Positions 972 to 38,978 of a stretch of DNA of 38,978 nt are shown here, in pieces (within the stretch, counting starts at the first letter, position 1; every line of letters starts with the position of its first letter). The position numbers and the translations under genes are program-made. The DNA is from a virus (lineage: Duplodnaviria > Heunggongvirae > Uroviricota > Caudoviricetes). The stretch lies in the IMG/VR virus record IMGVR_UViG_2713896784_000029. One strand, written 5' to 3'. The notes under the pieces were generated by a model that saw nothing but the letters and a program-made list of their open reading frames with translations, made no database searches and had not been told where the DNA came from.

Positions 972-3062
972 ATGTATGTCATTGCAAAAGAACTGATTGG
1001 CGCGCCCGGAATGCCTGCTACAACAAAAGGTATTCGCCAGGCATTACAACGTTACGTACAAGGGAAAAGCTGTTGTTCCCGTCGTCGCTCAGGCTCTAAA
1101 GCAACTGAATACAGCATCGACTGTTTACCTGAAGTGACGCAGCAGGCATTACGTGAACGTTATGCCCTGCAACTGATGACGCAAAAAGCCGATGAATCAC
1201 CGGCTCCGGTGGTGACAAAGGCCAGACGCTCATCTGACGTGGTTGATGCGGTGGAGGCATATCGCGGATCACCACAACTGATGGTCGAACGCCTCAATGC
1301 CCTGACTGAAAACCAGCGCCAGGTGGCTGATGCACGAATCGCGATCGTCAGCGAAGTGATGAAAGTCGCGCAACAACCCGGTTTCAGCTGCGCGAAGGCT
1401 ATCCGGTTTATCGTTGACAACCTGGCACGTTCACAGCTGGACGAGCGCATTGTGGCAATGGTTGAGACGGCGAACGCCAAAAAGGGAAACAGCCGTGCGT
1501 TGAGTGAAATCACGCTGAAGCGATGGATTGCGGCCTTTAACAAGGCACAGAACGCCGCTGAACGCCTGCTTTTACTGGCACCGGGTAAACGCCAGGAAAT
1601 AAAAGCCGAAGATATTAACTGGCTGCCCGAATTTCTGGCGCAGTATCGCCAGTCAAACGGCCGACCAATGACCGAGGCTTACGAGGATTTTGTCGCTGAA
1701 TGGCAGCACCGGCACGCTGATGAGCCTTATATGCTCGATATCATGCCGTCTTATGACACCATTCGCCGCGCAATGAAGAAACTGCCGGAAGTGGTGAAAC
1801 AAAAAGGCCGGGTGACCGGCAGTGAATACCGCCAGCTTGAGGGATTCACGCGCCGCGACTGGTCCAGAATGCCGGTGAATTATGTCTGGATTGGTGACGG
1901 TCACGGCATGAAGCTGAAATGCGCACACCCGGTTCACGGTCGGCCATTTGCACCGGAAGTGACCTTTGTTATCGACGGTGGCACGCGCTTTGTGGTGGGC
2001 TGGAGCCTTGACCTGGCTGAAAATGTTTTCGCCGTAGCCGGTGCCATACAGCACGGCATTCGCCATCACGGCAAACCGTTTCTGTATTACTCGGATAACG
2101 GCTCCGGGGAAACCGCCGACATCCTGGATAAGGAGGTTGTGGGGATACTGCCGCGACTGGGGATTAATCACCCGACCGGGATTGCCGGTAATCCGCAGGG
2201 GCGAGGCATTATCGAACGGCTTAACCGCACATTACCGATGCGCATAGCCCGTAAATACCGCACCTATTTCGGGAAAGGTGCAGATCGCGAGACGTTACGC
2301 AAAACCAACCGCGATTTACGCTCGGCATTTACTGCCCTGCAACAGGGCAAACGGCTGAACGCCCGGCAGCAGTCAGCGATGCGTGATTTACCGTCCTGGT
2401 CTGAACTGATTGATGCCATTCGTGATGGTGTTGAGTGGTACAACAACCGGCCGCACGATGAATTACCGGTGAAGCCGAACGGCAAGCATTACAGCCCGGC
2501 GGAGTTCAGAAAAAAACGCCTGGCGGAAGAGGACACGGAAATTGAATGGCTGTCCGATGTGGAATTGCGGGACATGTTCCGGCCGATGGTGGAACGCCCT
2601 GTAAGACGCTGTGAAATACGCTGGCTGAATAATATTTACTACGCGCCCGAGCTGCGTGATGAGCATGGCCGCAAGGTGCTTATCAGCTATGACATTCATG
2701 ATGCCGAACGAATTACCGTACGTCGCCTGGATGGCAGCGTGATTTGCGAGGCGGTATGGGACGGTAATAAACGCGAAGCCTTCCCGGTTAGCGCGGAATA
2801 CTACAAACAGCAGCAACGCCTTAAAGGCATGCGTAAACGCGCAGAGGAAAAAATCCGTGATGCCGAGGATGAGGTTGTCAACGTGCTGGAGCACAAGCCG
2901 CAGGAGCCCTGGCTGGAAAACATCTATCGCCCGGTAGGTAATACGGTGGCCGTTCAGCAACCTGCCATTGATGATGAGCCTGATGAAGAATACGAGCGCA
3001 ATTTCCAGCGGGGATTGCAGTTGCTCGAAGCGAAATTAAAAGAAAATGACCCGCTGGCCTGA
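972..3062 (+). CDS. A: Mu-type DDE transposase A
   Basis: 696 aa; position after ner; candidate catalytic D-D-E in VWIGDGHGM, YYSDNGSGE, IIERLNRT; N-terminus resembles the MuA end/enhancer-binding domain. Confidence 0.9.
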   Translation: MYVIAKELIGAPGMPATTKGIRQALQRYVQGKSCCSRRRSGSKATEYSIDCLPEVTQQALRERYALQLMTQKADESPAPVVTKARRSSDVVDAVEAYRGSPQLMVERLNALTENQRQVADARIAIVSEVMKVAQQPGFSCAKAIRFIVDNLARSQLDERIVAMVETANAKKGNSRALSEITLKRWIAAFNKAQNAAERLLLLAPGKRQEIKAEDINWLPEFLAQYRQSNGRPMTEAYEDFVAEWQHRHADEPYMLDIMPSYDTIRRAMKKLPEVVKQKGRVTGSEYRQLEGFTRRDWSRMPVNYVWIGDGHGMKLKCAHPVHGRPFAPEVTFVIDGGTRFVVGWSLDLAENVFAVAGAIQHGIRHHGKPFLYYSDNGSGETADILDKEVVGILPRLGINHPTGIAGNPQGRGIIERLNRTLPMRIARKYRTYFGKGADRETLRKTNRDLRSAFTALQQGKRLNARQQSAMRDLPSWSELIDAIRDGVEWYNNRPHDELPVKPNGKHYSPAEFRKKRLAEEDTEIEWLSDVELRDMFRPMVERPVRRCEIRWLNNIYYAPELRDEHGRKVLISYDIHDAERITVRRLDGSVICEAVWDGNKREAFPVSAEYYKQQQRLKGMRKRAEEKIRDAEDEVVNVLEHKPQEPWLENIYRPVGNTVAVQQPAIDDEPDEEYERNFQRGLQLLEAKLKENDPLA

Positions 3063-3132
3063 AATAAAAAATAACCCGAGCGGCGACTCAGGTTATTTGA
3101 TTAAACAAGGTATCAAATGAGAGGTTAATAAT

Positions 3133-4065
3133 ATGACTGATATTAACGATGTAATCAAGACCATTGATGAACTTATTGATGGCGGCGTACTGACGCAGTA
3201 TGCCATCGCCAGAGAGGCGGGAATTTCCGACGGCACATTATCGGCTTTCCGCAAGGGAAAATATAAAGGCGATAACGCTGCTGTGGCTGCTTCCCTGCGT
3301 TCCTGGTATGAGAACTGGAATAAACAAAGCGCACTGCCGGAACCGCCGCAGTTTGTGGAAACGCAGACAGTCCAGGAGCTGCGCGCACTGTTTCAGGCGG
3401 TTCGTCTGATGGGCTGTATTAACGTTATTGTGGGCGTACCGGGTGTGGGTAAAACGGCCACTGCCCGTAATTACTGCCAGGAGCAACCAAACACCTGGAT
3501 GATCACCCTGTCACCCGCGCACTCCAGCGTCACGGAGTGTCTGCTGGAGCTGGCCGATGCGCTGGGGATTGATTACACCCGCGCGAACAAAGGGGCATTA
3601 TCCCGCGCCATCCGCCGTCGCCTGATGGGAACGCGTGGACTGGTGATTGTGGATGAGGCGGATCATCTTGGTATTGACGGTCTGGAGCAACTCCGGGCAA
3701 TTCAGGACGCCACGGGGATCGGGATGGTGCTTATTGGTAACCCGCGCGGATTGTTTAAAGGTGGACGCCGCGCCTTTGATGATTTATCGCGCCTGTTCAG
3801 CCGTCTTGCCCGTACAAAACAACTTCGCAAGGCCAAAAAGGCGGATGTGCTGGCCATTGCCAGGGCATGGGGAATCAGTGGTGAGGCCGAGCTGGCCGTC
3901 ATGCAGGCTATCGCTGAAAAGCCGGGAGCGTTACGCGTTCTGACACATACGCTTAACCAGGCGTGGCTCACCGCCAGCGGTGAAGGCGCGGCGCTGACAG
4001 AAAAACATATTAATGCGGCCTTTAAAGAGGTTTATACCAACCCTGAATTACTCTCGCAGGTGTGA
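3133..4065 (+). CDS. B: transposition target-DNA activator B (AAA+ ATPase)
   Basis: 310 aa; Walker A GVPGVGKT, Walker B-like LVIVDEADHL; immediately downstream of A; RBS GAGAGG. Confidence 0.85.
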   Translation: MTDINDVIKTIDELIDGGVLTQYAIAREAGISDGTLSAFRKGKYKGDNAAVAASLRSWYENWNKQSALPEPPQFVETQTVQELRALFQAVRLMGCINVIVGVPGVGKTATARNYCQEQPNTWMITLSPAHSSVTECLLELADALGIDYTRANKGALSRAIRRRLMGTRGLVIVDEADHLGIDGLEQLRAIQDATGIGMVLIGNPRGLFKGGRRAFDDLSRLFSRLARTKQLRKAKKADVLAIARAWGISGEAELAVMQAIAEKPGALRVLTHTLNQAWLTASGEGAALTEKHINAAFKEVYTNPELLSQV

Positions 4066-19545: not shown

Positions 19546-20492
19546 TGCCTACCCCGATTACACCGGCGATGATCACCGCCCTGATGACGGGCTACCGTTC
19601 TGATTTTCAGGCCGGGATGTCCATGGCCCCGTCGCAGTACAAAAAAATTGCGATGACCGTGCCCTCCACCTCGAAATCCAACACCTACGGCTGGCTGGGG
19701 CAGTTCCCGCAGTTCCGTGAGTGGATCGGCTCCCGCGTCATCGAGAAGATGAAAGCCTATGGCTATGCCATCGTGAACAAAACTTTTGAAGGCACTGTCG
19801 CCATTAGCCGCGATGACTTCGAAGACGACAACCTCGGTATTTATTCCCCGTTGTTCCAGGAGATGGGGCGCGCTGCGGCGGTACAACCGGATGAGCTGGT
19901 CTTTGCTGCCCTGCGTGACGGGATCAGTGCGGCCTGCTATGACGGTCAGAACTTCTTTGATACCGAACATCCGGTTTACCCCAAAGTGGATGGCTCCGGG
20001 GATGCGCAGATGGTCAGCAATATGTTTGTGGCAAAAACCGGCTCTGTCGGCGCACAGGCTGATTACAGCGGTCCGGCCTGGTATCTGCTTGACTGTTCAC
20101 GCGCGGTAAAACCGCTGATTTATCAGGATCGCCGTAAGGCTGAACTTGTTGCCCAGACCAAAGTCGATGAAGGTCGCGCATTCACCGATAACGAATTTGT
20201 GTTTGGTGCATCCGCCCGTCGCAATGTGGGCTACGGCTTCTGGCAGATGGCCTACATGATGCAGTCACCGCTGACGCTGGATGCACTGTGGCACGGCTGG
20301 TCAGCCATGCGCGAATTTACCGCTGACGGTGGCCGCAAACTCGGCATTAAACCCACCCATATTGTTGTCCCCACCTCGCTGGAAAAACAGGCGGTGCAGT
20401 TGCTGGAGCGTGAACTGTTCGCAGACGGAAACGCAACCGTCTCTAACGAGATGAAGGGCAAGCTGGAGCTGGTTGTCGCGGATTATCTGTAA
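19545..20492 (+). CDS. major head subunit (Mu T-like)
   Basis: 315 aa, start coupled to I stop (ATGCAATAATG); followed by a GC hairpin. Confidence 0.7.
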   Translation: MPTPITPAMITALMTGYRSDFQAGMSMAPSQYKKIAMTVPSTSKSNTYGWLGQFPQFREWIGSRVIEKMKAYGYAIVNKTFEGTVAISRDDFEDDNLGIYSPLFQEMGRAAAVQPDELVFAALRDGISAACYDGQNFFDTEHPVYPKVDGSGDAQMVSNMFVAKTGSVGAQADYSGPAWYLLDCSRAVKPLIYQDRRKAELVAQTKVDEGRAFTDNEFVFGASARRNVGYGFWQMAYMMQSPLTLDALWHGWSAMREFTADGGRKLGIKPTHIVVPTSLEKQAVQLLERELFADGNATVSNEMKGKLELVVADYL

Positions 20493-31815: not shown

Positions 31816-32726
31816 TGTTCCATGTTGATAATAATTCCGGCGTGGCGAATATGCCTGCGCTGGCACCGGCGCAGAGTAATACCACCACCTGGTTTACCGA
31901 AGGTGACGGACAAAAAGGTATCAGCTGGATTGGTCAGGACTGGCTGAATATTCTCCAGGCCGAACTGCTGAATATTCTGGCTGAAGCCAGTATTCAGCCG
32001 GATAAGGCGCAGTTAAACCAGCTTACGCTGTCCATTAAAGCCATTATCGCTGCGAATGCCTTTTCCCGGAAAAACAACCTGAAAGAAATTGCTGATGCCG
32101 GTGCGGAAGCCCAGCGTCTTGCCCGTGGTTATCTTGGTCTTGGGGCGCTTGCCACAAAAAACAGTCTTGGTCCCGGTGACGTTAATGCTCTGGCGAAGGA
32201 TCAGAACCTTGCCGACCTGGAGAATGCGGGAACCGCCCGTAATAATCTGGATGTTTACAGCAAAAGCGAAGGTGATAACCGTTACCTGCGCAGGGAGCAG
32301 AACGGCGCAGACATTCCGGATAAAGGCGCTTTTATCGATAACGTTGGTTTACGGGAAACGGTAAATAAGGCTGCTGATGCCCTGCCATCGGGTGGAACCG
32401 CCGTGGCAGCAAACAGACTCGCCACCCCAAGAAATATTAATGGTGTTCCTTTTGACGGAACGCTGGATATCAACATCACGTCAGGAATGACGCAGTCAAC
32501 CGCAGATGGCCGGTATGTACAGAATGTTCAGCTTGGAGCACAGAGCTATCATTCACCCGGAGGCAATGAAATGTCATGGAATTACAGCGCACCTTCCGGT
32601 TGTATGCTTTCCGGAATTAACGTGCAGGAAACCGGCTCCCGGTCTGCGGACAATATCGGTGGGGTCTATTATCGCCCGGTTCAGATTTATATTAATAATG
32701 CCTGGAGAACGGTAAGTTCAGTGTAA
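31815..32726 (+). CDS. tail fibre protein; constant N-terminal part plus variable C-terminal part inside invertible segment
   Basis: ATG 31815 after GAGGAGAA RBS; from about nt 32346 the 3' portion is repeated in inverted orientation at 33560-33720. Confidence 0.75.
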   Translation: MFHVDNNSGVANMPALAPAQSNTTTWFTEGDGQKGISWIGQDWLNILQAELLNILAEASIQPDKAQLNQLTLSIKAIIAANAFSRKNNLKEIADAGAEAQRLARGYLGLGALATKNSLGPGDVNALAKDQNLADLENAGTARNNLDVYSKSEGDNRYLRREQNGADIPDKGAFIDNVGLRETVNKAADALPSGGTAVAANRLATPRNINGVPFDGTLDINITSGMTQSTADGRYVQNVQLGAQSYHSPGGNEMSWNYSAPSGCMLSGINVQETGSRSADNIGGVYYRPVQIYINNAWRTVSSV

Positions 32727-33361: not shown

Positions 33362-33720
33362 TTATGCGCTGGAAGCTGTTTTCCACGAACCATCTATCAG
33401 AAACTGAACAGGTCGATAATATGCGGTTACCGTTGCATTACCATCACCAGCGACATCAAGCCCTGTAAGTACGCATCCGTCAGGAACCTCAAAAATATTA
33501 TATTGCATTCCAATCGTTGACCTTGAACCTCTTCGAATGCTTTGAACATAACGTGAGTCAGCCACAGACTGCGTCATCCCCGATGTAATATTTATATCCT
33601 GCGTTCCGTCAAATGGGACACCATTAATATTTCTTGGAGTGGCGAGTTTATTCGCTGCAACAGCCGCTCCGTTCGATGGCAGGGCATTCGCGGCCCTGTT
33701 TACAGTATCCCGTAAACCGA
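33362..33720 (-). other. alternative tail-fibre C-terminal coding segment (Sv'-like) without own start
   Basis: Minus-strand frame open to the segment border; translation ...GLRDTVNRAANALPSNGAAVAANKLATPRNINGVPFDGTQDINITSGMTQSVADSRYVQ... parallels the plus-strand fibre. Would fuse to the fibre constant part only after inversion. Confidence 0.6.
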
Positions 33721-33787
33721 AGGTTTCAGGGATGCCGTATATCTGCTTTAAAAGGCCTTTCCACCTCTTTTTAAGGAAGGTAAATAC

Positions 33788-34447: not shown

Positions 34448-36487
34448 ATGACGTCCAAATGGGTTCAACTATCATCAATGCCCGGAAACTTTACTGTTAA
34501 AGTTTCCGGTGGTACAGCGGCATTTCTTGAGGCTCCCTTTCCTCCGGCCGAAACAAAAGGAGGAATGACATTTGCTGACTGTCTCATCAGTTTTAATACA
34601 CGGGATTGCCTGTGGGTAAGGCCAGTATCCGGTGATCCGAGTGTGGAAATTACCGGAGCGGGTATTGGTGCGGTCATTCCGTTAAGTGCTGATGTTGCCG
34701 GTACTGCTGAACCGTCAGACTGGGATAATGCTGAAACACATACCCGTCCGTCAGGAAATGAAACTGCTTCCAGCTCCCCTTCCTGGTATTACGTGGTGGT
34801 TCTTGCTGGTCAGTCAAACGGTATGGCTTACGGTGAAGGTCTGCCACTGCCGGAGACATATGACCGCCCCGAACCGCGTATTATGCAGTTAGCCCGTCGC
34901 AGTACAGTCACGCCGGGAGGTAAAGCCTGTCAGTATAACGACATCATTCTGGCCGACCACTGTCTGCATGATGTGCAGGATATGAGTGGAAAAAATCACC
35001 CGAAAGCGGATGTGGCTAAAGGGCAATATGGCACCGTGGGTCAGGGGCTTCACATTGCCAAAAAACTGCTGCCGTTTATTCCGGCAGATGCGGGGATTCT
35101 GCTGGTTCCCTGCTGCCGTGGTGGTTCTGCATTCACGGCGGGTGCTGACGGCACGTACAGTGACAGCACGGGTGCTTCAGAGGACTCAGCCCGCTGGGGT
35201 GTGGATAAGCCGCTGTATAAGGACTTAATCAGCCGGACAAAAGCGGCACTGGCGAAGAACCCGAAAAACCGCCTGCTTGCTGTGGTGTGGATGCAGGGCG
35301 AGTTTGATATTGATGCGAAGCCGACGGAGCATTCCGCGCTGTTTCTGGCGATGGTGGAAAAATTCCGCGCAGACCTGGCTGAACAGGCGGAACAGTGTAC
35401 CGGTGGCAGTGCTGCTGGCGTTCCGTGGATTTGTGGCGATACCACGTATTTCTGGAAACAGAAAAATGAACCGGCATACCAGGCAATCTATGGCGGCTAC
35501 AAAAACAAAACAGATAAAAACATTCATTTCGTTCCATTAATGACAGATGAAAATGACGCGAATGTACCCACCAACAATCCGGCAGAAGACCCGGATATTG
35601 AATCCATTGGTTATTACGGCTCAACGTGGCGTAACAGTGCCGCCACCTGGACATCTGCGGACCGGGCCAGCCATTTCAGTTCATGGGCACGTCGTGGGAT
35701 TATTTCCGACCGTCTGGCCACGGCAGTTCTGACTCATGCGGGGCGAACCACAGTAAAAGCCGATGTTCCATCTTCTGAAACTGAAGCACCAGTGCCGTCA
35801 CCTTCAGAAACTGAAGCAGTAACCACAACACTGCTGTCTTATCGTGTCAGTGAGTCAGAAGGAAATCTGAAAGCCCAGGGCTGGGAGCCGGCTGGCGGTA
35901 AAGCTGAAATTATCAGTGATGCAGGAGGCACAGGTGGTAAGGCAATGAAACTGACCAAGGAAACAGGTAAATCATCCTGGTATCTGGATCATGATGCCGG
36001 TACTGGTGCTGAACTGCTGAAAAATGGTGGTTTAATCAGTTGTCGTTTTAAAGTACCTGGCGACCTGGTGGCAAACCAGTATGTCATGGGGCTTTACTGG
36101 CCGGTTTCCTCTCTGCCGCAGGGTGTCACCCTGACAGGGGATGCAGGGAATAATCTGCTGGCATCGTTCTACATCCAGACAGACGCAAAAGACCTGAATG
36201 TGATGTACCACAATGCAAAAGTGGCAACAAATAACCAGAAACTGGGAACCTTTGGTGCATTTGATAATGAATGGCATACGCTGGCCTTCCGTTTTGCAGG
36301 AAATAACAGCCTTCAGGTTATTCCGGTTATTGATGGTCAGGATGGTGCCGCGTTTACCCTGACGCAGTCACCAGTAGGAACTTTCCCGGTGGACAAACTC
36401 CGCGTAACGGATATCACAAAAAATGCAACTTACCCGGTGCTGATTGACAGCATTGTGGTGGAAGTGAAAAAAGCGGTAACAGAATAA
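34448..36487 (+). CDS. cargo SASA/SGNH-type carbohydrate O-acetylesterase (prophage NanS-p-like) with C-terminal beta-rich domain
   Basis: 679 aa; VVVLAGQSNGMAYGEG (Ser motif) and VVWMQGEFD (WxQGE.D) match the sialate O-acetylesterase family signature; SETEA-SETEA linker then ~230-aa beta-rich domain; located between gin and com where Mu has no gene. Confidence 0.6.
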   Translation: MTSKWVQLSSMPGNFTVKVSGGTAAFLEAPFPPAETKGGMTFADCLISFNTRDCLWVRPVSGDPSVEITGAGIGAVIPLSADVAGTAEPSDWDNAETHTRPSGNETASSSPSWYYVVVLAGQSNGMAYGEGLPLPETYDRPEPRIMQLARRSTVTPGGKACQYNDIILADHCLHDVQDMSGKNHPKADVAKGQYGTVGQGLHIAKKLLPFIPADAGILLVPCCRGGSAFTAGADGTYSDSTGASEDSARWGVDKPLYKDLISRTKAALAKNPKNRLLAVVWMQGEFDIDAKPTEHSALFLAMVEKFRADLAEQAEQCTGGSAAGVPWICGDTTYFWKQKNEPAYQAIYGGYKNKTDKNIHFVPLMTDENDANVPTNNPAEDPDIESIGYYGSTWRNSAATWTSADRASHFSSWARRGIISDRLATAVLTHAGRTTVKADVPSSETEAPVPSPSETEAVTTTLLSYRVSESEGNLKAQGWEPAGGKAEIISDAGGTGGKAMKLTKETGKSSWYLDHDAGTGAELLKNGGLISCRFKVPGDLVANQYVMGLYWPVSSLPQGVTLTGDAGNNLLASFYIQTDAKDLNVMYHNAKVATNNQKLGTFGAFDNEWHTLAFRFAGNNSLQVIPVIDGQDGAAFTLTQSPVGTFPVDKLRVTDITKNATYPVLIDSIVVEVKKAVTE

Positions 36488-37140: not shown

Positions 37141-37415
37141 GCACGTTTTGTGTATTTTCCCTCCTGGGAGAACAGGCAGGACATATCAGCATCCTGAAAC
37201 AGGAAGCATTTTTGGGTTTGTATGTCTTGCCATTTTGAGATCGAGAACGGCGATAGATGAGCTGTAAGGGAGTCTTACAGGCAGGGCAAACAGGCTCTTT
37301 CATCCATGATAAAGATCTCCTTTTTATGCATCTCTGCTTTACAGGAGACCGGGGAATATCATAGGATACGCCACGAGCTCGAAGTAAAGCATTGATGCAA
37401 GTTTTTACAGATTGA

Positions 37416-37454
37416 CCCAGCATAGTTCCAGCTATGCTGGGTTTCACTTTTATG
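37416..37454 (+). terminator. strong intrinsic terminator inside the 0.57-kb noncoding stretch
   Basis: CCCAGCATAG-TTCCAG-CTATGCTGGG 10-bp stem followed by TTTCACTTTTAT; no annotated plus-strand ORF ends nearby. Confidence 0.55.
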
Positions 37455-37640
37455 TAGTATCCTGTTGATTTGAAACATACTACATATACGCGTGATCCTA
37501 CCTTCACTGTATAAAAAGTCAATAAAATGATCATTTTATGATCGTTTTCACCACCTAACTCTTCGTTTTCTTTAAGTAAATAATCACCTCCCTGAATCAT
37601 TGTTGATGACTTTTCAATCTATTTGTTGTATCAATTAAAC

Positions 37641-37670
37641 AAATCGAATCGATCGTTTTTGTCGATCGAT
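37641..37670. promoter_or_regulatory. mom-operon regulatory palindrome with two GATC (Dam) sites
   Basis: AATCGATCG-TTTTTGT-CGATCGATT inverted repeat about 45-75 bp upstream of com; GATC at 37651-37654 and 37664-37667. Confidence 0.5.
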
Positions 37671-37714
37671 TGCATGAGAAAGGCATCAACAACAAAGCAG
37701 GAGGTTATGCGGTC

Positions 37715-37915
37715 ATGTATCGAAACATACGGTGCCGACACTGCAATAAGCTACTGGCACGGGCCAGTTTCAGTTATCTGGAAGTAAAATGTCCGCGCTG
37801 TAAAACCCTCAATCAAATCACATCTCCGAGCGCCACAGAGCACCCCACATACACAAGGAAATCCTGTCGTGGGGAACAGAAAGCAAGTCACATCCCGAAT
37901 CATCAGCACGCCTGA
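37715..37915 (+). CDS. com: Com zinc-finger translational activator of mom
   Basis: [30 protein letters not shown] parallels Mu Com (IRCKNCNKLL...IRCPRCK); ORF overlaps the mom start as in Mu. Confidence 0.8.
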
Positions 37916-38606
37916 ACTTATTCGCTATAACGACAATATCGTTGGTTATGGCTCCCGTGAGTTGCGGGTTGAGACAATAAGTTGCTGGCTGGCCAGACTG
38001 GTCATCGTCAATAAACATTACAGCCACCGTTTCGTAAATAACTCCTACCTTCATCTGGGCATATTTTCAGAACGGGAACTTGTTGGCGTAATGCAATGGG
38101 GTTACGCCCTTAACCCAAACAGTGGTGCACGCGTCGTAACGGGTACGCAGAACCGAGAATATATGGAGCTTAACCGGCTATGGCTGCATGACTGTATGCC
38201 GAGAAACTCCGAATCAAGGGCAATCAGTTACGCGCTCAAGCTAATCAGGCAGCTTTATCCGCAGGTACAGTGGGTTCAGTCGTTTGCAGATGAGCGTTGT
38301 GGCTGTCTTGGTGTCGTGTATCAGGCAAGCAATTTTGATTATGTAGGCAGCCATGAATCAATATTCTATGAACTTGATGGCGAGTGGTATCACGAGATTT
38401 GCAGGAATGCCATTAAACGAGGCGGACAACGAGGTGAACATCTGAGGGCTAATATTGACAGAGCCAGTGTTCATAAGTTCCGACAGTTTCGTTACATCCG
38501 GTTTCTGAACAAGAGGGCCAGAAAACGCCTCAACACAAAGCTATTCAAAGTCCAGCCTTACCCAAAACCACAAACAGTTAAAACTGGTTTGAAAGAGAGT
38601 GAATGA
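37869..38606 (+). CDS. mom: Mom DNA-modification protein
   Basis: 245-aa ORF immediately downstream of and overlapping com, last gene before the right end, as in Mu; exact start uncertain. Confidence 0.7.
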
Positions 38607-38640
38607 GCGCTTAAAAACTCATTCTAAAACTCAAAAGAAA

Positions 38641-38732
38641 AGCGCCGATTTAGTATCAAATAAGTTGCGTATCGGCGTTTTTCAGCGGTATCAAATGAAA
38701 TGCAAATCGGTATCAAAAAAATCGCCGCGCTA
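38641..38732. repeat. putative prophage right end (attR-like) repeats
   Basis: Three copies of (A/G)GTATCAAA at 38652, 38687, 38710; CGGCGTTTTTC resembles the CGTTTTTCG core of Mu end sites; flanking inverted GCGCCGATTT / AAATCGCCGCGC. Confidence 0.35.
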
Positions 38733-38777
38733 TACTTGCTGCAAGGTTATCCCGCCGTTGAAGCTGCATTAGGTTTT

Positions 38778-38978
38778 ATGCTTCCGGCACTCTTTATGAG
38801 TTTCCTGCTCGCCTCTTTTCAGCGCAAACAATCTCTTTGCGTTACCGCAGCGTTAGTTGGTGCCCTTGCAGGCGTAACGCTATTTTCTATTCCCGTCGCC
38901 ATTCTGGCAGGCATTGTCTGTGGCTGCCTCACTGCGTTAATCCAGGCATTCTGGCAAGGAGCGCCCGATGAGCTATGA
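38778..38978 (+). CDS. small integral membrane protein ORF at window edge (possibly host flank or truncated host gene)
   Basis: Two hydrophobic helices (LPALFMSFLLASF, ALVGALAGVTLFSIPVAILAGIVCGCLTALI); frame is open upstream to 38664; the next ORF starts at an overlapping ATG at the last bases of the window. Confidence 0.3.
   Translation: MLPALFMSFLLASFQRKQSLCVTAALVGALAGVTLFSIPVAILAGIVCGCLTALIQAFWQGAPDEL

Follow-up and report, generated by a model that had tools for sequence, protein, structure and literature searches.

The stretch of DNA analysed here (hereafter the window; 38,978 nt) opens at the stop codon of a repressor-type gene on the minus strand (1-531, an annotated CDS in relatives) and carries phage genes up to mom, the last prophage gene, which lies on the plus strand at 37869-38606 and was assigned from the ORF list, a Pfam Mom match (E 4e-77) and the RefSeq name 'protein mom' in relatives. 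Positions 1-500 match Sp18 of E. coli O157:H7 Sakai (NC_002695.2, 5040971..5079729) at 100% identity, and this prophage is annotated in that genome as a 'Mu-like phage'. Near the left end lies a plus-strand gene for a 696-aa transposase (972-3062), recognised as a distant MuA relative by its Pfam domains and its alignment to MuA. It is followed by a plus-strand gene for a 310-aa MuB-like ATPase (3133-4065), for which PF09077 Phage-MuB_C and AAA_22 were found on an identical contig (5317-6249). A MuA-family transposase gene and a MuB-type ATPase gene near the left end are a feature of strict Mu phages, and both are present here. The transposase scores 63.8 bits with Mu-transpos_C and 28.7 bits with HTH_Tnp_Mu_1, both above the cut-offs, matches rve weakly, and shares 22% identity with MuA over its full length. 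The alignments point to D309, D375 and E415 as candidates for the catalytic DDE residues; in this transposase, 40 residues separate the second D from the E, against about 56 in MuA. A sequence search of solved structures with the transposase returned only retroviral (RSV/ASV) integrase cores (E up to 0.01), with no MuA chain among the matches.

Several further features were observed inside the prophage. Two 185-nt inverted repeats (32337-32521 and 33543-33727; 77% complementary and 1,021 nt apart) probably flank the invertible host-range (G-segment-like) tail-fibre region that is mentioned in the literature for Sp18. Between the tail-fibre region and com/mom there is a 679-aa ORF (34448-36487) with a C-terminal DUF6645 according to the contig gene calls; it resembles a cargo or accessory gene, and we noted no Mu counterpart. 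Directly upstream of com-mom, an inverted repeat (AATCGATCG...CGATCGATT, 37647-37671) contains two GATC (Dam) sites and is reminiscent of the Dam-controlled region that regulates mom in Mu.

We then turned to the region downstream of mom, where the earlier note, made from the sequence alone, had seen three spaced copies of a repeat. The results show that the 8-mer GTATCAAA is indeed present three times on the plus strand, at 38653, 38688 and 38710, with spacings of 35 and 22 nt and within the last 82 bases of the phage. The 9-mer GGTATCAAA, however, is exact only at 38687 and 38709, and the third copy reads AGTATCAAA at 38652. Counted on both strands of the whole 39-kb window, GTATCAAA occurs five times against 1.0 expected, a number that none of 100 shuffles reaches, and about 3.5e-7 same-strand triples within 65 nt are expected. 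The number of internal GTATCAAA copies (3110 and 19956) fits chance, at about one per window; these positions coincide with two more exact GGTATCAAA copies inside the prophage, at 3109-3117 (plus strand) and 19956-19964 (minus strand), one of them within the transposase gene. We refer to the end repeats as R1 (core GGTATCAAA, 38709-38717), R2 (core GGTATCAAA, 38687-38695) and R3 (core AGTATCAAA, 38652-38660), all on the plus strand. Counted inward from the phage end, they occupy nt 18-26, 40-48 and 75-83, respectively, and R3 reads TTTGATACT in that direction.

The segment that holds R3 can also form a hairpin. Two arms of 13 bp (GAAAAGCGCCGAT and ATCGGCGTTTTTC, 38637-38683, plus strand; 92% complementary) enclose a 21-nt loop in which R3 sits, and the stem is followed by a T5 run. 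The RNA fold of 38595-38700 has a free energy of -31.3 kcal/mol (z = -4.3). A promoter and terminator scan found nothing on the plus strand downstream of mom; the loop of 21 nt exceeds the limit of 8 nt in the terminator scan, and the hairpin was not called. An Rfam search of 37400-38978 gave two chance-level matches only. Diverged relatives retain the three cores without conserving the arms. The hairpin may be the mom terminator, a suggestion in which we place low confidence; R3 differs from R1 and R2 by one flanking base, and part of the signal at R3 could instead serve transcription termination. The flanking inverted repeat proposed in the earlier note can be recovered as GCGCCGATTT (38642-38651) and AAATCGCCGC (38719-38728), which are complementary at nine of ten positions, but the 12-mer quoted there, AAATCGCCGCGC, is not fully complementary. 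The same note had compared CGGCGTTTTTC with the Mu end core, and its 9-mer GCGTTTTTC does occur in Mu R1. We nevertheless rejected CGGCGTTTTTC/GCGTTTTTC as the binding core: it is a single-copy sequence between R2 and R3, distinct from the repeated core, and CGGCGTTTTTC (38673-38683) corresponds to the 3' arm and T-run of the hairpin. A 13-mer, ATGAGCGCTTAAA, is found near both ends in the same orientation, at 38603-38615 of the window, where it overlaps the mom stop, and at about nt 95-107 of the prophage, before L2 (the second left-end core, described below); it is not found at the left end of a relative with a 92%-identical transposase, and it may be a chance match or a remnant.

Beyond the phage end, the plus strand from 38735 to 38978 is host DNA and corresponds to the 3' fragment of ygaZ (codons 166-245). 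Positions 38736-38978 match the 3' part of ygaZ together with the beginning of ygaH at 243 of 243 nt; codon 166 of ygaZ starts at 38736, its stop codon is 38976-38978, and the ygaH start, an ATG at 38968 mapped over from the intact RefSeq locus (ygaH 1733-2068), overlaps the end of ygaZ (38968-38978, plus strand). As the earlier note had advised, the flank was compared with uninterrupted host genomes, and at a coverage of at least 80% the ygaZ/ygaH sequence was matched in 5,417 of 5,426 complete E. coli genomes, with O157:H7 among the best matches listed. The genes 3' of the junction on the contig (AzlD, MarR-type, EmrA-like and MFS transporter) agree with the intact order ygaH-emrR-emrA. The ygaZ product is annotated as the L-valine exporter subunit YgaZ of the AzlC family, and intact ygaZ reads ...CCGGCAGCGGC TTGCTGCAAGG... 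at the insertion point.

The membrane-protein frame that had been noticed as open back into the phage end is an ORF of 92 aa on the plus strand (38700-38978), taken from the ORF list and predicted as a gene on two Logan contigs as well. It starts with the ATG at 38700, runs to the last base of the window, and joins 12 codons of the phage end and the junction in frame to residues 166-245 of YgaZ; it has no Pfam match of its own. The intact 245-codon frame of ygaZ is not present: the gene is split after codon 166, and its N-terminal part lies 39 kb away beyond the prophage. The window thus contains only the last 80 codons of ygaZ from the YgaZ/YgaH (AzlC/AzlD) L-valine exporter, with the gene broken by the prophage. 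In addition, we observed a phage-free metagenome contig (ERR13325726) in which ygaZ codon 168 is changed from CAA to TAA, a nonsense allele two codons past the insertion point; this is another naturally inactivated ygaZ allele.

To define the right boundary, we aligned six E. coli copies of the phage, whose common identity stops at ...CGCCGCGCTATA (window 38734) and is followed by unrelated sequence. The last phage base is the A at 38734, where the phage DNA reads ...GGTATCAAAAAAATCGCCGCGCTATA, and the right junction is GCTATA joined to CTTGCTGC. The terminal 17 nt (AAAATCGCCGCGCTATA, 38718-38734, plus strand) are delimited by the shared phage end, by the variable flanks and by the reconstruction of the excised locus, which succeeds only with the phage end set at 38734; in multi-copy genomes of other genera, the flanks likewise diverge exactly 17 nt beyond the R1 core. 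When 38300-38978 was used as a query, its mom-proximal part was found at 99-100% identity in many of the 5,426 complete E. coli genomes, and the neighbour of the right end differs by genome (dcuC, hyfE, a fimbrial protein, an ABC transporter, genes of other prophages). Across E. coli genomes, the same phage end adjoins dozens of different genes. Conserved phage DNA therefore meets host DNA that varies from copy to copy, as is characteristic of an attR, and the proposal of a right prophage end is borne out. The right terminus, ...CTATA-3', ends in TA and the left end starts with TG, so that the TG...CA ends of strict Mu phages are not found; the earlier note had spoken of a terminal CA. None of the 5,426 complete E. 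coli genomes covers at least 80% of the query with the ygaZ junction, and the left end was therefore sought elsewhere.

A search for inverted repeats did not find the left prophage end within the window. Two Logan assembly contigs, from SRR6651722 and SRR6651753, encode the 92-aa junction ORF with its exact sequence. From intact ygaZ and the left end of Sp18, we predicted ten left-junction fusion proteins, corresponding to duplications of 0-9 bp, and looked them up as exact sequences; only the 4-bp and 5-bp versions are present in the protein collection. The 4-bp version, YgaZ 1-166 followed by CNQVNHLIPTRVLVKGGEITCKILK, is a protein that no other duplication length would give; it is encoded on contig SRR6651722_127, a contig recorded under two samples. 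In SRR6651722, the left junction is ...GGCAGCGGCTTG joined to TGTAACCAGG..., and the contig reads ...GGCAGCGGCTTG followed by TGTAACCAGGTG..., that is, ...GGCTTG directly before TGTAACC. The phage parts of the junction contigs show no mismatch to the window over 9,828 nt (left) and 2,548 nt. The left end recovered in this way lies 250 bp outside the window, and base 1 of the window is base 251 of the prophage. Intact ygaZ is restored exactly only by removing a 38,984-bp prophage together with one copy of a 4-bp sequence, CTTG. The prophage accordingly extends from 5'-TGTAACC to GCTATA-3' with CTTG on both sides, and the right copy of this target-site duplication, placed by the left junction and the ygaZ restoration, is 38735-38738. 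Both ygaZ junctions were taken from separate short-read contigs of one sample (SRR6651722), with no single continuous read.

We next compared the duplication with those of other copies of the phage. All nine Sp18-type copies and all three more distant relatives with paired flanks have a 4-bp duplication (12 of 12 paired copies). In the Sp18 type, the sequences are CTTG in the ygaZ copy, TAAA in Sakai, CTCG in F1 E4, CGGG in 2015C-3108, ATTA in FRIK2455, CAGG in SS NE 1040-1, CATC in LC727881, and AGAA and AACA in two IMG genomes; the depositors of the LC727881 GenBank record likewise annotate a 4-bp duplication. The empty hyfE and sorM sites, rebuilt with a single copy of the repeat, are identical to the intact genes at 296 of 296 nt, which brings the empty sites checked to three in all, and the 5-bp duplication of strict Mu phages was not found. 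The IMG drafts 2617270962 and 2617271340 were left out: their left and right flanks do not pair, probably as a result of several phage copies, and both hold several mom or transposase contigs. A target preference for C at the first position of the duplication was hinted at by the first eight copies but is unsupported by the larger flank set. The earlier note had anticipated a 5-bp duplication and had regarded its absence, together with an intact host gene with its own start immediately downstream, as speaking against an insertion. A matching 5-bp duplication is literally absent, with a 4-bp one, established from the left junction and the intact ygaZ allele, in its place, and the downstream ORF is a fusion rather than a complete gene that has a start of its own.

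The left end carries counterparts of the repeats. It reads TGTAACCAGGTGAATCA-TTTGATACC... and has three cores, L1-L3, at nt 18, 113 and 165, in the orientation opposite to those of the right end, which read inward is TATAGCGCGGCGATTTT-TTTGATACC-...-TTTGATACC-...-TTTGATACT with cores at nt 18, 40 and 75. All six cores thus point inward, and L1 and R1 both occupy nt 18-26 from their respective ends. We searched IMG/VR for relatives through Mom and the transposase, and found that the right-end cores of diverged relatives stay at 18, 40 and 75 while the spacers differ; the position of R3 is kept in all relatives. One lineage has TTCAAGATA in place of TTTGATAC at six of six sites, at both ends. Because the positions are fixed, the spacers are free, and the core changes together at both ends, we regard R1-R3 and L1-L3 as putative binding sites for the element's own transposase, with TTTGATAC(C/T) as the predicted core. 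These comparisons, all at the sequence level, support the earlier suggestion that the three right-end repeats behave as an analogue of R1-R3, that is, as candidate transposase-binding sites.

The relatives extend across the Enterobacterales. A scan for the pattern GTATCAAA-N27-GTATCAAA-N14-GTATCAAA, with one genome per species, shows this layout in Leminorella, Sodalis, Limnobaculum, Arsenophonus and Edwardsiella, and also in Klebsiella sp. WOUb02, on the chromosome and on plasmids. Two lineages of relatives (groups 2 and 3) have 5'-TA...TA-3' termini and 4-bp duplications (GTCG, AGGA and GATA), and the Leminorella and Limnobaculum relatives end in ...CTACA, with a CA. Since both CA and TA ends occur among these relatives, the terminal dinucleotide varies within one family of identical site layout.

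The one-base position of the right end bears on whether the element has the canonical geometry of Mu, with the end moved one base rightward to 38735 (...TATAC) or to a CA close by, and with a 5-bp duplication, as Mu makes at its CA termini (PMC3145075). In favour of such a geometry, a C follows TATA in six of the eight copies first inspected, and a C also precedes TTGCT in intact ygaZ, which makes the right junction alone ambiguous by one base; moreover, the protein collection contains the product of 167 aa that a 5-bp duplication would yield. The base after TATA is, however, an A in FRIK2455 and a T in Sakai, the left junction allows ygaZ to be rebuilt only with a 4-bp overlap, and the paired copies give 4 bp without exception, so we attach almost no probability to the canonical geometry. 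The 167-aa protein was rejected as evidence for 5 bp: it is normal YgaZ 1-167, derived from contigs that end there and from the CAA-to-TAA allele, none of which has phage DNA. Nor does the junction look like a chimeric join made in assembly. Phages present in several copies often break or misjoin short-read assemblies, but the right junction was assembled independently in SRR6651722 and SRR6651753, the matching left junction is on the SRR6651722 contig that is listed for two samples, and the two junctions share the precise 4-bp duplication typical of the Sp18-type phage, which leaves an artefact with a negligible chance.

The repeats themselves could be read in other ways. The attP arms of integrase-dependent phages also carry clustered short repeats beside the prophage boundary, and R1-R3 might accordingly be arm-type att sites, with ygaZ as a dedicated attachment site of an integrase. 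Against this stand the dozens of different genes next to the same end, the lack of the ygaZ junction in every complete E. coli genome of the collection (0 of 5,426 at a coverage of at least 80%), the presence of a Mu-type transposase and a MuB-like protein in place of an integrase, and a flanking repeat that is a 4-bp target duplication with no shared core. Sp18 DNA also does not circularise (PMC2669165). Site-specific integration is therefore extremely improbable. A main role of the repeats in mom expression, as a 3' untranslated region or terminator, or in DNA packaging fares slightly better, since R3 is enclosed by a strong hairpin with a T-run in what is the 3' untranslated part of mom, but we still consider it very unlikely. 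Far from mom, the left end has three inverted copies of the core, and L1 is as distant from its terminus as R1 is from the right one; the core covaries at both ends between lineages; and the hairpin arms are lost in relatives that retain all three cores.

Taken together, the results indicate that 38607-38734 is very probably the right end (attR) of a 38,984-bp Sp18-type Mu-like prophage, and that the sequence from 38735 onward is E. coli chromosome, reached through transposition into ygaZ. The earlier proposal of a Mu-type random insertion into a host gene agrees with the split of this AzlC-family gene and with the non-site-specific placement of the phage. The junctions show that the phage transposed into codon 165/166 of ygaZ and that the four target bases CTTG were duplicated. 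The mechanism is inferred from the sequence patterns of the ends. The MuA-related DDE transposase of the phage would bind the three putative sites at each end, pair both ends, and expose a 3'-OH at ...TA-3' on the right and at ...CA-3' on the left, and both 3'-OH ends would then be joined to phosphates of the target that are 4 bp apart. Binding by the transposase, its cleavage after TA and a 4-bp stagger are predictions of this model, and the TA terminus is a departure from the Mu model, in which the terminal CA is the cleavage site. The insertion leaves ygaZ in two pieces, one for 166 N-terminal residues followed by 25 residues encoded by the phage and one for the 80 C-terminal residues preceded by 12 codons of the phage end and junction, and it puts 39 kb between ygaH and its promoter.

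The exact right boundary (38734), the CTTG duplication and the disrupted host gene are now fixed for annotation, and the ygaZ-ygaH valine-exporter operon is broken in the strain that carries the prophage. More widely, a widespread MuA-related lineage breaks two textbook features of Mu while it keeps the asymmetric layout of three plus three end sites, and programs for finding Mu-like prophages that are keyed to TG...CA and 5-bp repeats will place the ends of the Sp18-type lineage one base off or miss them. According to a 2021 survey, every Mu- or B3-like phage described until then had TG-CA ends and a duplication of 5 or 6 bp (PMC8705779), and in the literature searched we found no mention of the 4-bp duplication and the TA terminus of these Mu-like phages. 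We see about an even chance that the Sp18-type phages and their Enterobacterales relatives form an uncharacterised MuA-related branch with a 4-bp stagger and a 3'-TA end, in which the TA may be on the right end only (Sp18 type) or on both ends (two other lineages). Should such a branch exist, its members would be natural variants in which to study what determines the stagger at the target and how strictly a terminal CA is required.

Among the closest known systems is Sp18 itself. Where compared, the two prophages do not differ in the final 42 nt at the right or in the initial 26 nt at the left, and they share the gene order repressor, ner-like, transposase, B ... com, mom as well as the kind of duplication, which is 4 bp long (TAAA in sorM for Sp18). 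They differ in location, with Sp18 in sorM and the window prophage in ygaZ, and in length, with 38,755 bp between the mapped termini of Sp18 and 38,984 bp here. Sp18 has been reported as intact, packaged and not circularised (PMC2669165), and Sp18-like and Mu-like prophages occupy different loci in different strains (PMC7430833, PMC10132054). The prophage type is therefore already known, as the Sp18 type of Shiga-toxin E. coli, and the insertion into ygaZ is an ordinary transposition event.

Compared to Mu, the element has the same general organisation: three transposase-type repeats per end, with L1 about 90 bp from L2/L3 and R1-R3 within about 80 bp, random insertion, MuA-type domains with a MuB-like partner (the A/B gene pair), and a final mom gene, whose distance from the end is 128 nt in the window prophage and 115 nt in Mu. 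The CGAAA cores of Mu are at 22/127/167 on the left and at 13/22, 44 and 57 on the right, and the cores of the window prophage are at 18/113/165 and 18/40/75, respectively. The third right core of Mu (57) is reversed, whereas the right cores here all have the same direction, and the end-site sequences show no similarity. Mu is cleaved at its terminal CA, and MuA joins the ends to target phosphates 5 bp apart (PMC3145075); the right terminus here is TA instead of CA, and the duplication is 4 bp instead of 5 bp. The element thus works like a Mu end yet lacks two features of strict Mu phages, and it is classed as Sp18-type within the wider MuA-related transposable phages. The B3-type and Leptospira 'TA-TA' prophages are likewise transposable, measure 36-40 kb and make short target duplications, and some Leptospira prophages have non-canonical TA termini, like the enterobacterial groups 2 and 3 (PMC8705779). 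They differ from the lineage of the window in that they have B3/Tn552-family transposases and 6-bp duplications (PMC8705779), whereas the lineage described here has MuA-type domains and a duplication of 4 bp.
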